Origin: a virus
Lineage: Duplodnaviria; Heunggongvirae; Uroviricota; Caudoviricetes
Virus record (IMG/VR): IMGVR_UViG_3300014691_000062
DNA: 19,618 nucleotides
Direction: 5' to 3' (one strand)
The notes beneath the pieces are model-generated. The model did not search any database and was not told the origin of the DNA. It saw only the letters and a program-made list of their open reading frames with translations. How positions within the stretch are numbered: position 1 is the stretch's first letter; every line of letters starts with the position of its first letter. Below are positions 2,784 to 14,255 of the stretch, in pieces. The translations under genes were made by a program, and so were the position numbers.

Positions 2784-3307
2784 ATGTACTCCAATGAAGA
2801 AACCAGCGAAATAGCTGCCTTCATTCGTAGTAAACCTTTTTCATCAACGCAGTAATGGATTCTTTGAAGAGTCGCAATCAATACAACTCACTAATGGAGA
2901 GACTTGTCTCACGCATGAGACAAATTTCCCGTTTGATTTAATGGACACTATAGAGGGACAGAATGCCTTCCTCACTCGAATCACATCAATTAAGGAGGTT
3001 CAACATGTTTCATTCCACAAGTCATCAGGCTGTAATTATGGCAGCATCAGTTTGTGCCACAGACCTTTTCCGCTTCAATTTGAGCCTGATTCATTTCTAC
3101 CTGACCGGCTCGCCTCTATCTTTTTAATCCCCGCTTTATCCAAATTGCATTGCCAGAATGCCGACAACAGACTGACATTCAAATCCTGACTACCTCCAAT
3201 AGTCTGACCGTACACCTATATAGTTTTAATTTTCATCAATCCATTTAACTATCGTTTAATTGTTGTCACATAGGATTCTGCCGTTTTTAACAATGCAGGA
3301 TAATAAG

Positions 3308-3601
3308 ATGAAAAAAATGTTGTTTTCTGCCGCTCTGGCAATGCTTATTACAGGATGTGCTCAACAGACGTTTACTGTTGGAAACAAACCGACAGCAGTA
3401 ACACCAAAGGAAACCATCACCCATCATTTCTTCGTTTCGGGAATTGGACAGCAGAAAACTGTTGATGCAGCCAAAATTTGTGGCGGCGCAGAAAATGTTG
3501 TTAAAACAGAAACCCAGCAAACATTCGTAAATGGATTGCTCGGTTTTATTACTTTAGGCATTTATACTCCGCTGGAAGCGCGGGTGTATTGCTCACAATA
3601 A
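3308..3601 (+). CDS. bor: Bor outer-membrane lipoprotein (serum-resistance lysogenic-conversion protein)
   Basis: 97 aa from the internal ATG (MKKMLFSAALAMLITGCAQQTFTV…EARVYCSQ), near-identical by recall to lambda Bor; lipobox LITGC; opposite strand to and just downstream of Rz, as in lambda and DLP12. Confidence 0.9.
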   Translation: MKKMLFSAALAMLITGCAQQTFTVGNKPTAVTPKETITHHFFVSGIGQQKTVDAAKICGGAENVVKTETQQTFVNGLLGFITLGIYTPLEARVYCSQ

Positions 3602-10017: not shown

Positions 10018-10340
10018 ACTTTCAGGCCCCTCTCATGTAACCAGTGGGCTGCACGCAGCCTGGCGTTTTCCTCACCGGCAAGCAGTGAGCGGATAATCCC
10101 GACCGCCTCGCTGTCGTCGTCCTTCACCGCGGTATGAAGCGTTATCCCCCGGGCCACGCCACGCTTTATCGTGATGACGCCTTTTTTCTCCAGCGCACGA
10201 AGATGCTCCACCGCTGCATTCACCGAACGGTATCCCAGCATGGTTGCCACCTCCTGATTGGTTGGCGGGAAACCACGTTCTTTCTGATAAGAAATCAGCA
10301 TATCCAGCACCTGCTGCTGGCATTGAGTTAACGTCGTCAT
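10014..10340 (-). CDS. LexA N-terminal DNA-binding-domain protein lacking the S24 peptidase domain
   Basis: 108 aa; first ~70 residues align with the LexA winged HTH (QQQVLDMLISYQKERGFPPTNQEVATMLGYRSVNAAVEHLRALEKKGVI vs LexA RQQEVFDLIRDH…[34 protein letters not shown]). ATGA overlaps on both sides. Confidence 0.7.
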   Translation of the reverse strand: MTTLTQCQQQVLDMLISYQKERGFPPTNQEVATMLGYRSVNAAVEHLRALEKKGVITIKRGVARGITLHTAVKDDDSEAVGIIRSLLAGEENARLRAAHWLHERGLKV

Positions 10341-10990
10341 GCCGCCATCTCCCTGACCAGTTTTTCCGCCTGCTGACGAACCTGCTCCAGAAACGCCTCA
10401 CCACATGCCTCAAGTTCATCGCGCCCGATGTAGCTGATTGCCGGTCCCTTCCAGGTCTTGTCGAAAACAGCAATAGCACCAGCGAAGAAAGCGCCTGTCG
10501 GCACCTGCTTCTCATCCTTCGGGATAAACCAGGCAGGCAGTTCAAAACCAATACGCCCGCGAATAAAAGCAATATGATCTGCATCTTCCGGCCACCACAC
10601 TTCGCTGGTGGCAGCTTTGATCAGGAAAACATAGCGCCCGCCCTTATCACGCATGGCACTGGCATGTTTCATGATGTAACGCATGCCGGTGATGTATTGC
10701 CCCTCATGCTGACTGGCGCGGCTGTATGGGGGATTACCAAAGGCAGCACCTTTTAGCTCCGCAAGACGTTCTGACCAGTCATGCGCCAGCGCGTTGTCTT
10801 CCGCCGTGTAATACGCAGCACATTTGGCGTTATCACCGTCAGTGAACAGATCCAGAACAAACGGGCCAAACAGGGTGTTAATTCCCCAGAAAATGTTGTC
10901 CGGCGTGCGCCACTGATCGCCCACTTCCTTCAGTTCATGGGCTGGTTTGTTCCGCAGTTCCACCAGCGCCTGGCAATATTTATTACTCAT
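10337..10990 (-). CDS. Phage DNA N6-adenine methyltransferase (Dam-like orphan MTase)
   Basis: NPPY motif (AFGNPPYS); preferred ATG at 10990 shares one nt with the upstream stop (TAATG); track start 11023 is GTG. Confidence 0.8.
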   Translation of the reverse strand: MSNKYCQALVELRNKPAHELKEVGDQWRTPDNIFWGINTLFGPFVLDLFTDGDNAKCAAYYTAEDNALAHDWSERLAELKGAAFGNPPYSRASQHEGQYITGMRYIMKHASAMRDKGGRYVFLIKAATSEVWWPEDADHIAFIRGRIGFELPAWFIPKDEKQVPTGAFFAGAIAVFDKTWKGPAISYIGRDELEACGEAFLEQVRQQAEKLVREMAA

Positions 10991-11478
10991 TAAGCCCCCA
11001 CGTAATTCCCTGACAGATACCACTCTTCACCCGATGCAGCGCGCTTGCTGCTTTTCTGTAAGCACTGCTCACGACGCGCCAGAAAATTGTTTCGTTCTGG
11101 CTGGGAGTGGCTTTCACGGAATGCCGCCATCCACACCGTTGCAGCACGACGGTATAGGCCCCTGGACTCCAGTTCTTCAGCCTGGCGGGTCAGGCACAAA
11201 ATCACCCGTGGATCGTTAGTGCCGACATAGAAATTGCGCACAGGTCTGGTTTCACGAACTGGTTGTGGTTCCGGCTCCTGCGCTCTCTCAGTCAGGCGCG
11301 GGAAATGTCTGCGTGTATCCCCTTCACAACGGTGAGCCACACGCCCACTCTGACGTAACTTGCTTGCTGACTGCAGAACGCGCTGCCGTGAGTAACCTGC
11401 AAAAGCATCCGCAATATCTCCGGAAGTACAGCCCGGATGGGCTTCAATGAATTTCTGAACTTCATTCAAAAGACTCAT
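10990..11478 (-). CDS. Hypothetical protein, possibly PerC-like
   Basis: About 162 aa; C-terminal …GLYRRAATVWMAAF… is reminiscent of PerC/Pch-type regulators. Weak assignment. Confidence 0.45.
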   Translation of the reverse strand: MSLLNEVQKFIEAHPGCTSGDIADAFAGYSRQRVLQSASKLRQSGRVAHRCEGDTRRHFPRLTERAQEPEPQPVRETRPVRNFYVGTNDPRVILCLTRQAEELESRGLYRRAATVWMAAFRESHSQPERNNFLARREQCLQKSSKRAASGEEWYLSGNYVGA

Positions 11479-11480
11479 GC

Positions 11481-12313
11481 TCACCCCCTGAATCCTGCCG
11501 GGATCTGGCTGTAGTCCACGTTGTCGTAACTGGATTTGAAATACGGGTCTTCGCGTTTTTCTGTGTATGTGCTGATGGACGGCGATAAGCGCAGGGAAAG
11601 CTCATCCCATTTTTCCCGCAGCTTCGACGGGCTGAGCACGTTACGGCACCAGAACGGATCGCGGCTGACGCGGCTGTACATCTCGCAGATTTGTTTGTGA
11701 GTACGACCATCCTGCACACACATCAGGCGAATTTCGTTTGCCCAGGCTGTCCAGTTCGGTTCTTTGGGACGAACCACCTCGCCGTCACATTCGGCGGCCT
11801 GCTCGTACAGGGCGATGANNNNNNNNNNTGCTGGGTTGGGAAACCGCCGGAACGAGAAGGTTTTTTATCTGACGGATCATGTTTTGATTTTACTGACGGA
11901 TCCCCGCCAGATTCTGACGGGTGAAAACCCGCTTTTTTGCCAGATTTCGACGCATCAAATTTTGACGGGTCAGATTTTGATGCGTCAGATTTTGACGGGT
12001 CAGAATCTGACAGTTGAGAAAATGCCGCTGCCTGAAGCTTCGCAACGTTAAGCTGATAAACATTCGACGCATTGCGGTTACCCTGGCGACGCGCCTTACG
12101 CGTTAACCAGCCTTCTGCTTCCAGCCGTGCGATAGCCGTTCTGACGGTACTCATCCCCGCGCCAATCTGGCGGGCAATGGTTTCAATTGATGGCCAGCAC
12201 ACACCTTCGTCATTACTGAAATCAGCCAGGCGGGCCATAATTGCCACGCTGGATAATTTCATGCCTGATGCAGCGCAACCATCCCATACATAGCCGGTTA
12301 ATTTAGTGCTCAT
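11481..12313 (-). CDS. Replication initiator (lambda O-like organisation, HTH N-domain) with the origin iterons inside the gene; interrupted by an N-run
   Basis: N-terminal HTH domain (…WPSIETIARQIGAGMSTVRTAIARLEAEGWL…), then a repetitive SKSDASKSDPSKFD linker encoded by iterons; C-terminal part is ORF 11481..11777. N-run 11819..11828 inside; GAGGT SD. Confidence 0.7.
11819..11828. other. Run of 10 N inside the replication gene
   Basis: Literal n characters in the sequence. Confidence 1.
11866..12012. repeat. Origin-like iteron array
   Basis: About 8 tandem copies of a ~12-15 bp unit built on TGACGG (cagattttgacgggt, cagattttgatgcgt, attctgacgggt, tactgacggatc …). Confidence 0.7.
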
Positions 12314-12322
12314 GACCGACCT

Positions 12323-12661
12323 CTATTTCCCTGAATTTACGACGAAACTGTTCGAGCGGGCTGAAGCACTCATGCTCATAGCCTTCGCGGAGGTAGATAA
12401 CTCGTTGTGTTTCCGGCTCCCAACGAATGACTCTGACGGGCACTCCGTAGTGATCTTTGAACCAGCGGTTAACTTGTCGCAAAGGACTGTCTCCTTCTGC
12501 CGGTTGAAATCACCCACAGCCCACTCAGCAAAGCTGTGGGTTACAATTTCCCTGTCACCTGGTACATTAACTGCATAGCAATACTCCACCTTCGCTTTTC
12601 CACCCGGTACAGGAAGCGCAATCAGTTGCGAGCGACGGTAGTGTGTTGTTAAACTGTTCAT
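12323..12661 (-). CDS. Hypothetical protein between the cII-like gene and the replication gene
   Basis: ATG at 12661 overlaps the upstream stop (ATGA), supporting translation; the C-terminal half is low-complexity, so the true extent is uncertain. Confidence 0.45.
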
Positions 12662-13266
12662 GCGTTAGTTTCTCCACAGTCACGACACGCCACGGCGCCC
12701 GGAGCTGCACACTCGCGGGCGTCATTACTTTCTGAAATGCAAAAGATTTTGTAGACCAGTGCTGCATGCTCCTGCAGCTTCGAAATTGAGAGATACAGCT
12801 CGTCGTTAATTGCTGTCTTCTCATGCGGTTCCACCACACCGTCTTCGATTGCCGAACGAATCTGTCTGGAATAACTGCCAATCTGTTCAATGACTTCCAG
12901 CAGGCGCTGGTTAATATCGGCGTTGTCCACATCCTCGACGTCAGGAAGAGACACAAAGACGCCATTTGCAGACTGCGCCACAGCGTCAGCAATGAAGTGA
13001 GTTCCACCAGCACGTTGCAAAATCATTGCCCATCCCAGCGGGAAAATCTGATCGCCATCGGCACGAAGGCGGTTAAATAATGCGTTTTCTGTTACATCCA
13101 GCCAGTCAGCTGCTTCAGCGTAACCACCCGGCAACGCTGCGATAGTTTTTCTGACAGCTTTCACGTACCACTCAGGCTGTTTTTCTACTTTCCAGTGATG
13201 CTTACCCACGGTTAGCCTCATCGTTCTGTGGTTTCTGTTAATCGATTTATCCATTAGATTTTTCAT
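12658..13266 (-). CDS. Putative CII-like / YdaT-family regulator
   Basis: Long ORF immediately downstream of a YdaS-like cro. The track start at 13323 would overlap cro by 77 nt; plausible ATGs are at 13266, 13254 and 13221. Family assignment is from position and partial recall. Confidence 0.45.
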
Positions 13267-13447
13267 AAAGCTCAGGTTTAAATGGCAACCGTCCGCAAGT
13301 TCTATATGCAGCTTCTGCTGCACGTCCTTTTGGAATTAACTGGCCCGGACGGTTTCGCCACTGATAAACGGCTTCAGTTGTTATGCCGAAAAAAGCAGCA
13401 ACTTTCTCAATACTGCCGAAGTAGCTTTCGATATCGTCAGTTGTCAT
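13247..13447 (-). CDS. cro: Cro-like repressor (YdaS-family HTH)
   Basis: 66 aa, divergent from cI across an operator region; HTH …SIEKVAAFFGITTEAVYQWRN… resembles YdaS/Cro. Confidence 0.75.
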   Translation of the reverse strand: MTTDDIESYFGSIEKVAAFFGITTEAVYQWRNRPGQLIPKGRAAEAAYRTCGRLPFKPELYEKSNG

Positions 13448-13544
13448 ACGCCCTCCAAACTAAGTTTTATTAGATGCTAATTACAAATCTATCTTTGGTC
13501 AATAAAAACTAAGATTACTTAGCAATTCAAGAAATGGTGCTCCT
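13448..13544. promoter_or_regulatory. OR-like region: divergent promoters with two operator palindromes
   Basis: CTAAGttttaTTAG at 13460..13473 and CTAAGattaCTTAG at 13509..13522 between divergent cro and cI. Confidence 0.6.
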
Positions 13545-14171
13545 ATGGAAACGGTTGGTCAGCGTATAAAAGCTCTGAGAAGAGTTACCGGAACGTCCCA
13601 GAAAGAATTGGGTAAATTTTGTGGAGTAAGCGACGTTGCTGTGGGGTACTGGGAGAAAGACATCAATACCCCTGGTGGGGAGGCACTTTCGAAATTAGCG
13701 AAGTTCTTCAATACGTCAATAGATTACATTCTTTATGGTGCTGAGTTTGAAGGCAAACTCGTCACAAACATGCGCAGAGTTCCTGTAATATCGTGGGTTC
13801 AGGCTGGGCAGTTTACTGAATGCAGGGCAGCAGAAGTGTTTAGTGAAGTGGACAAGTGGGTAGATACATCATTAAAGATTGGTGATAACTCATTTGCATT
13901 AGAGGTTAAAGGTGACTCCATGACTAACCCTAATGGCCTCCCAACAATACCAGAAGGCGCAACAGTGATTGTAGATCCAGATGCAGAACCTCGTCATGGA
14001 AAAATAGTCATCGCTCGACTTGATGGAACAAACGAAGCTACAGTAAAAAAATTAGTCATCGATGGCCCTCAAAAGTTTTTAGTGCCATTAAATCCTCGGT
14101 ATCCCAACATCCCTATCAATGGTAATTGCCTTATCATTGGTGTAGTCAAAGGAGTTCAATACGAACTCTAA
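13545..14171 (+). CDS. cI: CI-type prophage repressor (HTH plus S24 LexA-like autopeptidase domain)
   Basis: 208 aa; HTH …GTSQKELGKFCGVSDVAVGYWEKD…; S24 motifs GDSM and …ATVKKL…; overall similarity to P22 C2 / lambda CI by recall. Confidence 0.9.
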   Translation: METVGQRIKALRRVTGTSQKELGKFCGVSDVAVGYWEKDINTPGGEALSKLAKFFNTSIDYILYGAEFEGKLVTNMRRVPVISWVQAGQFTECRAAEVFSEVDKWVDTSLKIGDNSFALEVKGDSMTNPNGLPTIPEGATVIVDPDAEPRHGKIVIARLDGTNEATVKKLVIDGPQKFLVPLNPRYPNIPINGNCLIIGVVKGVQYEL

Positions 14172-14184
14172 GACCTCTCTTCTC

Positions 14185-14255
14185 TAACTAAGGCACCGAA
14201 CTAAGAAAAGTTTGGTGTTTTTTCTTGCCATAATAACTAAGTTAAGTTAGATTTT
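14185..14255 (+). promoter_or_regulatory. OL/PL-like region: operator repeats and a candidate sigma70 promoter
   Basis: CTAAG…CTAAG at 14188..14205 and CTAAGttaagTTAG at 14237..14250; TTGCCA (14225..14230), 17-nt spacer, TAGATT (14248..14253). Confidence 0.5.

Follow-up and report, generated by a model that had tools for sequence, protein, structure and literature searches.

A YmfL-type CII protein and its predicted antisense promoters in the immunity region of a lambdoid Escherichia coli prophage

Introduction

The 19,618-nucleotide stretch of viral DNA in IMG/VR record IMGVR_UViG_3300014691_000062 (Caudoviricetes), termed here the window, contains the immunity region of a lambdoid Escherichia coli prophage that belongs to the SfII/SfV/e14 group and is apparently intact. 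In this region a small cro gene is followed by a longer gene, ymfL, which stands in the position held by cII in phage lambda. A conserved DNA element is present in two copies, one at the start of ymfL and one in the gene behind it, and is predicted to be the operator of the YmfL protein.

The lambda CII protein is an unstable activator of 97 amino acids made from the PR promoter. It acts over the −35 region of pRE, a promoter which has no −35 hexamer and is situated at the 5′ end of the cII gene itself; the protein binds the direct repeat TTGC-N6-TTGC, and pRE transcribes antisense through cro into cI. YmfL and the predicted promoter P1 described below occupy the same logical slot as lambda CII and pRE (and P22 C1), and the same mechanism is proposed for them. 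There is no sequence relationship between YmfL and lambda CII, however, and no analogues of pI or paQ were found, the sole second site being in ymfM.

The CII protein of phage 186 (CP76; PDB 6VLI, 6VPE and 6VMH), with 169 amino acids, is the experimentally studied member of its family and is an activator (Protein Data Bank structures as given; PMC7708051). It undergoes rapid proteolysis via a C-terminal degron in a context that includes FtsH and RseP, and the truncated form CII145 is stable, i.e. removal of the degron stabilises the protein. The mutations V36E/Q37S fall in its helix-turn-helix (HTH) motif (PMC7708051). The annotated 186 CII site, ATGTTTG-N13-CAAACAT, is on the cII start codon and upstream of the leftward promoter pE. 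The gene order apl, cII, fil, where fil encodes a cell-division inhibitor, parallels the order cro, ymfL, ymfM found here.

The e14 element of E. coli K-12 contains genes orthologous to those of the window, ymfT(croE)-ymfL-ymfM, and its order ymfK, ymfT, ymfL, ymfM, with a divergent LexA-type repressor, is also that of the window. The e14 YmfM protein is an SOS-inducible division inhibitor; expression of ymfM causes filamentation, and expression of e14 ymfL from pBAD24 gives no filamentation (bioRxiv 10.1101/2020.11.19.390815). A similar slot layout is found in Rac and CP-933P, where a Cro-like ydaS gene, a larger regulator (ydaT) and a divergent repressor are present. The reported YdaT operator, TTGATTN6AATCAA (PMC9986795), is unlike the motif predicted for YmfL.

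The protein in the CII position

The ymfL gene is on the minus strand at positions 12658–13209 and encodes an HTH regulator of 183 amino acids, with a GTG start at 13209 and a GAGG ribosome site at 13216–13219. It is nearly certain that the long protein is YmfL, a member of the phage 186 CII family, and that it is neither YdaT nor lambda CII. The protein scores 167.1 bits against the NCBIfam equivalog NF041471 (cut-off 90), and RefSeq calls the identical protein ‘protein YmfL’. It also belongs to Pfam PF06892 (Phage_CP76), with 51.6 bits (gathering score 26) over profile positions 5–141 of 146; 186 CII scores 163.6 bits against the same model. The assignment to PHROG 101, ‘CII-like transcriptional activator’, is consistent with this.

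Profiles and fold place the protein close to 186 CII, although sequence identity between the two is only about 15%. A 58-member family profile aligned with 186 CII by hhalign gives a probability of 87% (E 4e-6) over 110 columns, including the HTH, and in the PDB the best matches of this profile are ‘Regulatory protein CII’ (6VLI/6VMH, E 2.3e-4). An AlphaFold (AF2) model of YmfL has a predicted local distance difference test score (pLDDT) of 88 and a predicted template-modelling score (pTM) of 0.72. In a Foldseek search of the PDB with this model, ranks 1–8 are all 186 CII (6VLI/6VPE/6VMH), with probability 1.0 and E values from 2e-4 to 8e-2.

A preliminary description of this locus, made from the sequence alone, had noted that the protein is much longer than lambda CII, had brought up YdaS/YdaT-type pairs while leaving the role open, and had named hidden Markov model (HMM) searches of the YdaT and CII families as the check. 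These searches give the PF06892 match and no match at E ≤ 0.01 to either YdaT (PF06254) or lambda CII (PF05269). YdaT is also without signal by BLAST with the Rac protein (E 11) and by hhalign with the YmfL profile (probability 0.9%), and the top 50 fold matches include no YdaT chain, even though the searched library contains 8BT1 and 3C4R. A phmmer search of PDB sequences with YmfL gave no match. BLAST is uninformative either way, both for 186 CII and for YdaT; the distinction between them comes from profiles and fold only. A long CII is no longer puzzling, because in the 186 CII family, where 186 CII itself has 169 amino acids, a length of about 180 is normal.

The model of YmfL has an N-terminal HTH, two long C-terminal helices and a low-confidence tail; the N-terminal HTH and long helices are shared with 186 CII. 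The predicted recognition helix consists of residues 41–48, and N46, R47, L48 and R49 are invariant within the YmfL subfamily. In the profile alignment, V36 and Q37 of 186 CII, the residues changed in the HTH mutant, align with E41 and N42 of YmfL, which begin the model helix. The tail, residues 157–183, has a pLDDT of about 60 but is conserved within the YmfL subfamily. It is probably disordered or flexible, and by analogy with 186 CII it may act as a protease degron and so keep the activator short-lived.

A conserved element in two copies

Site 1 spans positions 13204–13260 on the plus strand and contains the predicted promoter P1. At the ymfL start there is an imperfect inverted repeat, AACCACAG-N16-GTGGGT, with CCAC and GTGG cores 22 bp apart. 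As written on the plus strand, the distal half is ACCCACGG (13204–13211) and the proximal half is CTGTGGTT (13226–13233). The −10-like hexamer TAGATT follows at 13255–13260, with a 22-nt gap counted from CTGTGGT, and the predicted start is at about 13265–13267, antisense to cro and directed toward cI.

For the assessment of conservation, 76 ymfL loci were retrieved from many genera of Enterobacterales; the start and motif counts are for 72 distinct loci. CCACA is found 22 nt before the GTG in 64 of the 72 loci and 23 nt before it in four more. Among the 64, ACCACA is invariant and a G is next in 61. The GTG is flanked by (T)AACC before and GG after. When the upstream regions are aligned across loci, the DNA 5′ of AACCACAG is variable and the motif itself invariant.

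On the opposite strand a TAnnnT hexamer lies exactly 22 nt past CTGTGGT. Clustering of the site-1 flanks at 60% identity gave 40 clusters, and TAnnnT is at 21–23 nt in 39 of these. At other offsets it is present in 0–4 clusters nearly everywhere; the exception is the offset that abuts the motif, with 12. The position of the hexamer relative to the cro stop codon varies from −36 to +15, such that it is inside cro, on the stop or beyond it, and in different frames. Thus a coding constraint on cro does not explain the hexamer. With a position weight matrix (PWM), site 1 scores 36.3–40.2 versus a shuffle maximum of 11–13.5.

Site 2, with the predicted promoter P2, is at positions 12512–12568 on the plus strand. 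It is a perfect 8-bp inverted repeat with a 14-bp spacer, the distal half being ACCCACAG (12512–12519) and the proximal half CTGTGGGT (12534–12541). The −10-like hexamer, TACATT, is at 12563–12568 and is followed by a CAT initiator, with the predicted start near 12575. The site is inside ymfM, and transcription from it would be antisense to all of ymfL. When the PWM is trained on site 1 only and the ribosome-site columns are excluded, site 2 is the second-best match in the window (21.4 versus a shuffle maximum of 13.5), and the equivalent place is the best non-site-1 match in 61 of 68 loci. A second copy is found 105–134 nt past the ymfL stop in most loci, within the ymfM-type gene (52 distinct sequences). 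Here TAnnnT is at the 22-nt gap in all nine clusters, and a conserved CAT lies 7 nt on, at the canonical +1 distance. No third site near int or Q, which would be a pI or paQ analogue, was found in the window or in a 30-kb stretch of the prophage.

It was considered whether the motif is in different reading frames in the two types of ymfM found; this was rejected, as both types read N-H-S.

Start codon and integrity of ymfL

The ymfL frame is open from a GTG at 13323 (221 amino acids) to 12658, and has ATG codons at 13266 (202 amino acids) and 13254 (198 amino acids). A start at either ATG would overlap cro. The preliminary description gave about 200 amino acids, with an ambiguous start that may overlap cro. 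From the raw frame the length and the ambiguity were fair, but homologues fix the start. RefSeq and GenBank place the start of the identical gene at GTG 13209, this codon is where the N-termini align when homologues from many genera are compared, and a GTG start codon is found in 69 of the 72 distinct loci, with a GG-rich ribosome site in front. Phage SfII is without the nearby ATG (13221 here) and retains the GTG. Megablast similarity to other prophages ends near 13233, and therefore the upstream ATGs are outside the conserved ymfL module. By this comparative evidence the start is GTG 13209, which is 37 nt after the cro stop, and the two genes do not overlap.

The YmfL sequence is 95–99% identical, over the full length, to other E. 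coli YmfL proteins, of which there are hundreds to thousands of database copies, and there is no frameshift relative to YmfL homologues. Both cro and ymfL are real, intact genes.

The K-12 e14 ymfL (nucleotides 2859–3428 of the retrieved locus L003) has a 189-amino-acid frame from an ATG, which is the UniProt length; RefSeq now begins it at a GTG four codons downstream (185 amino acids). Comparative data favour the GTG start in e14 also.

Proposed mechanism

The comparative data suggest that YmfL activates two antisense promoters, P1 and P2. This is the probable explanation of the locus, with a good deal of room left for doubt. The PR-like promoter in the cI-cro region would direct the rightward early operon, with cro transcribed first and then ymfL. 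YmfL would bind the AACCAC-N18-GTGGGT repeat, in which about two helical turns separate the CCAC and GTGG cores, and would occupy site 1, across its own start codon, as well as site 2 inside ymfM. In this way it would activate two plus-strand promoters that have no −35 hexamer but have a TAnnnT −10 element exactly 22 nt past the proximal half-site. If the hexamer is taken as −12 to −7, the half-sites would be at about −41/−34 and −63/−56.

A P1 transcript would begin within the 3′ end of cro, continue antisense across that gene and enter cI; it would thereby prime synthesis of the repressor and oppose Cro. The P2 transcript, with its start inside ymfM, would be antisense to ymfL. Transcription from P2 may add to that of cI, and may also lower the expression of ymfL and ymfM and the rightward readthrough into the replication genes.

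The known 186 site and the predicted YmfL site resemble each other in that both are inverted repeats with about two helical turns between the halves, are placed over the 5′ end of the activator's own gene and have downstream of them a promoter, predicted in the case of YmfL, that is directed toward cI. Core spacing is 22 bp for the predicted YmfL site and 20 bp in 186, and two target promoters are predicted here compared with the single pE of 186 (PMC7708051). The genetic contexts also differ: YmfL is in a lambdoid setting (Cro, S24 CI, O-like replication), whereas 186 CII is in a P2-like one (Apl, 186 CI).

A further proposal goes beyond the activation of two promoters. Perhaps the YmfL-type CII controls a previously undescribed tandem pair of antisense promoters via one invariant operator, and protein and operator form a portable pair; this is tentative, and is given slightly less than an even chance. 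That the pair may be portable and predictable comes from the finding that the operator is kept down to 24% protein identity.

Evidence against activation, and alternative explanations

Several observations weigh against activation of P1 and P2 by YmfL. No study of YmfL function, DNA binding or a role in lysogeny was found in the literature searched. Pairwise BLAST of YmfL with 186 CII gives no signal, and hence their homology rests on profiles and fold, where the Foldseek template-modelling (TM) scores are only 0.35–0.68. The predicted half-sites, AACCAC/GTGGGT, differ from the ATGTTTG/CAAACAT of 186, and the predicted site is centred at about −48, compared with about −36 in 186, i.e. about 12 bp farther upstream of the −10. 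The motif is absent from 186 itself and from one distant PF06892 homologue (locus L084). A generic sigma-70 scan finds no promoter at P1 or P2; it missed them because neither has a −35 hexamer. Site 2 can form an RNA hairpin of −22.8 kcal/mol (z −5.4; other strand, z −3.6). Site 2 lies with both its halves in codons (N-H-S, V-G), as does site 1 with part of its distal half, and part of the conservation is thus possibly at the protein level; in that segment of YmfM, however, N-H-S and V-G are nearly the sole residues common to the two YmfM types. Lastly, a weak hairpin at 13307–13322 (plus strand) could stop P1 transcripts before cI.

This hairpin, TGCAGC-TTCT-GCTGCA, with its T-rich tail extends over 13307–13332 and is terminator-like. 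It is about 45 nt past the P1 start, within the cro antisense. If it is functional, P1 yields a short anti-cro RNA and not cI mRNA. The sigma-70 scan flagged a plus-strand site at 13052–13081, inside ymfL and not at the conserved element.

Another way to read the two sites is that YmfL binds them as a repressor or roadblock, and either autoregulates its translation start or blocks PR readthrough to ymfM and the replication genes. In favour of such a role, the start codon and ribosome site of ymfL lie within site 1, the next gene on the PR transcript contains site 2, and the CP-933P YdaT, which is in the same slot, is described as a DNA-binding equivalent of a ‘CII repressor’ (PMC9986795). Yet a roadblock needs no −10-like hexamer, and TAnnnT is fixed at the 22-nt gap in 39 of 40 clusters at site 1 and nine of nine at site 2, where the CAT at the canonical +1 distance also argues against it. 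In addition, 186 CII, the member of the family studied by experiment, acts as an activator (PMC7708051), and where an inserted gene separates cro from ymfL, site 1 is retained next to cro and not next to ymfL. The roadblock is therefore regarded as unlikely. An equally low likelihood is given to the possibility that the element is read by some other host or phage factor, or acts as RNA, and that the targets of YmfL are elsewhere. Protein and motif are linked by nothing beyond their co-occurrence, the PF06892 homologue in L084 and 186 CII do without the motif, site 2 forms its stable hairpin in either RNA strand, and pairing between the GTG start and CCAC is possible at site 1. Site 1 RNA, though, folds no better than shuffles (z −0.5), the element has no family match in an Rfam search, and the positions that would form the stem are invariant rather than covarying. 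An RNA model also leaves the antisense TAnnnT at its fixed distance unexplained, and PF06892 genes, down to 24% protein identity, are accompanied by the motif in settings whose cro, cI and replication modules are unrelated. DnaA was considered as a reader, with TAACCACA as a candidate box; it was rejected by the consensus, TTATNCACA, since the critical fourth-position T is missing in both element halves.

A further alternative is a YdaS/YdaT-type module, of the kind that the preliminary description brought up, in which the long protein would be a YdaT homologue and possibly part of a toxin-antitoxin-like system. The position fits that of Rac (racR, ydaS, ydaT), with a small YdaS-like HTH gene, a larger regulator and a divergent repressor; most Cro partners of ymfL match YdaS_toxin (43 of 59), and RefSeq labels the e14 partner, ymfT, ‘YdaS family’. 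YdaT itself is contradicted by the HMM, BLAST, profile and fold searches above, and the indirect evidence gives no sign of a toxin-antitoxin module: in PADLOC, YmfL, YmfM and DUF4222 match none of the defence or toxin-antitoxin families, and in e14 ymfL expression gave no filamentation, the activity mapping to ymfM. The module is thus highly improbable. Still less credence can be given to a decaying pseudogene or mis-called open reading frame (ORF) of a cryptic prophage, although the K-12 namesake is in the defective e14 element and a run of N is present in the neighbouring replication gene of the window. The frame is full length and 95–99% identical to its E. coli counterparts, the family extends at 41–94% identity across genera with invariant HTH residues, and the identical gene is in an apparently complete prophage and in isolated phages. 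A frameshift, which would have pointed to a pseudogene, is not found.

Distribution in other genomes

DNA similar to ymfL is present in 2710 of 5426 complete E. coli genomes, that of K-12 with its e14 included. The identity of 41–94% within the family across Enterobacterales is that of the best tblastn segment. Upstream of ymfL, in 59 distinct loci, there is a small HTH protein gene. It matches the Pfam models YdaS_toxin in 43, P22_Cro in 29, HTH_3 in nine and lambda Cro in one, where one locus may match several models. Of 54 related loci, 46 have an S24 repressor as the divergent gene. The early-operon order, i.e. a lytic repressor gene, then the CII-slot gene, and a divergent repressor, holds in these 59 and 54 loci, and the window has the same order. 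From the varied cro and cI partners it follows that YmfL occupies a CII slot behind interchangeable immunity modules.

PF06892 homologues with 24–31% identity to YmfL (L083, 1222–1285; L085, about 1440–1500; L087, 35–95) retain AACCACA(T) or AACCAC-N18-GTGGGG together with the antisense TAnnnT, at the same 22-nt gap. One of these is in a P2/186-like context with Ogr_Delta and one is in a primase-bearing element.

Loci of Phytobacter, Izhakiella and Symbiopectobacterium have an extra gene between cro and ymfL (L013, 2648–3085; L016, 2232–2768; L079, 2543–2812). In these three the inserted gene took over the conserved GTG-GGT-AA start and site 1, which remains beside cro, and ymfL starts with an ATG behind a different, hairpin-containing leader.

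The K-12 e14 element has both predicted sites. Its YmfL is about 95–96% identical and its YmfM 97% identical to those of the window. The e14 cro and cI alleles are of another immunity type, and e14 is defective, whereas the prophage identical to the window looks complete.

Cro and the cI-cro region

The cro gene (13247–13447, minus strand) encodes an HTH repressor of 66 amino acids, with an ATG start and a GGAGGG ribosome site. That Cro and the protein in the CII position form a pair in a lysis-lysogeny switch, as first described, is borne out; they are divergent from a CI-like repressor with an S24 peptidase domain. Cro was also described as YdaS-like. A distant likeness to YdaS_toxin (PF15943) is found, at 19.5 bits, but this is below the cut-off of 30, whereas the protein passes P22_Cro (PF14549) with 42.8 bits (cut-off 30.2) over 55 of 60 profile positions. 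Rac YdaS passes both models, and hence the two overlap. By these scores Cro is a relative of YdaS but, at the curated threshold, not a member; ‘YdaS-like’ is loosely right and is not the best assignment. Among solved structures, the nearest relatives are the Cro proteins of phage N15 (2HIN, E 9e-5) and P22 (1RZS). The RefSeq label is ‘Cro/CI family transcriptional regulator’.

A putative operator and promoter region for cI and cro is at 13460–13522, to judge by its palindromes and a PR-like promoter. There are two related 14-bp palindromes, CTAAG-N4-CTTAG (13509–13522) and CTAAG-N4-ATTAG (13460–13473). The PR-like promoter for cro, on the minus strand, consists of TTGACC (13502–13497), a 17-nt spacer and TAGCAT ending at 13474. 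Two related 17-mers, AAACTAAGTTTTATTAG and AAACTAAGATTACTTAG (within 13457–13522), hold the CTAAG-N4-CTTAG-type palindromes and flank this promoter; they are probably CI/Cro operators.

Prophage and neighbouring genes

A 1.9-kb segment of the window (12300–14200) is 100% identical to a prophage that adjoins tRNA-Thr (thrW) and proA in E. coli Z0117EC0116. This prophage carries integrase, terminase, portal, capsid and lysis genes and is apparently complete. Phage vB_EcoM-689R6 matches the region with 99.9% identity. The locus is an ordinary immunity region of a common prophage.

The CI-like repressor gene (13545–14171, plus strand), divergent from cro, encodes 208 amino acids with HTH_3 (41.8 bits) and an S24 LexA-type autopeptidase (Peptidase_S24, 96.7 bits). 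Identical records annotate it as a LexA family protein or repressor cI.

On the other side of ymfL, the ymfM orthologue (12323–12661, minus strand) has a start that overlaps the ymfL stop (ATGA). This 112-amino-acid ORF is 97% identical to K-12 e14 YmfM and is in PHROG 1170. A 59-amino-acid ORF with a TTG start (12303–12482, minus strand) overlaps ymfM in another frame and matches DUF4222 with 67 bits. SfII annotates ymfM, and RefSeq and the 689R6 record annotate only the DUF4222 ORF. The ymfM-type ORF of other genera often has no more than 63–78 amino acids, and the DUF4222 frame is well conserved, with up to 46 of 59 residues identical. Thus e14-type YmfM may owe its C-terminal half to read-through in the alternative frame of DUF4222.

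After these two ORFs, downstream of ymfL, is an O-like replication gene. It has a run of 10 N at 11819–11828 in a repeat-rich region (DPSKSDASKSDPSKFDASKS), which splits it into ORFs at 11723–12313 and 11481–11777. In the otherwise identical NZ_CP098192 the gene is 942 nt compared with 833 nt here, so that about 119 nt are represented by the N run. Farther downstream, past the replication gene, are a PerC-family activator, YfdN-like, of 164 amino acids (10990–11484, minus strand) and a 228-amino-acid ORF (10337–11023, minus strand) that matches the N6-adenine methyltransferase annotated in the identical prophage.

Implications

The finding is largely ordinary, in that the region is a standard immunity region and the protein a near-identical member of a named family. 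The genes already carry family names; what is new is the conserved repeat with its −10-like element, in two copies. Its value is that it provides a concrete and cheaply testable candidate operator, and two candidate target promoters, for a very common protein. If confirmed, it would also correct two annotation habits, the 189-amino-acid ATG start of K-12 YmfL and the naming of Cro and CII slots in the style of ‘toxin YdaS/YdaT’.

If the tandem antisense pair is real, commitment to lysogeny would feed back on the activator itself and would shut off the division inhibitor and the replication genes. Activation of P1 and P2 by YmfL, if true, would represent a 186-type CII at work within lambdoid switches, and the lysogeny decision would be linked to antisense control of the e14-type division inhibitor gene ymfM.

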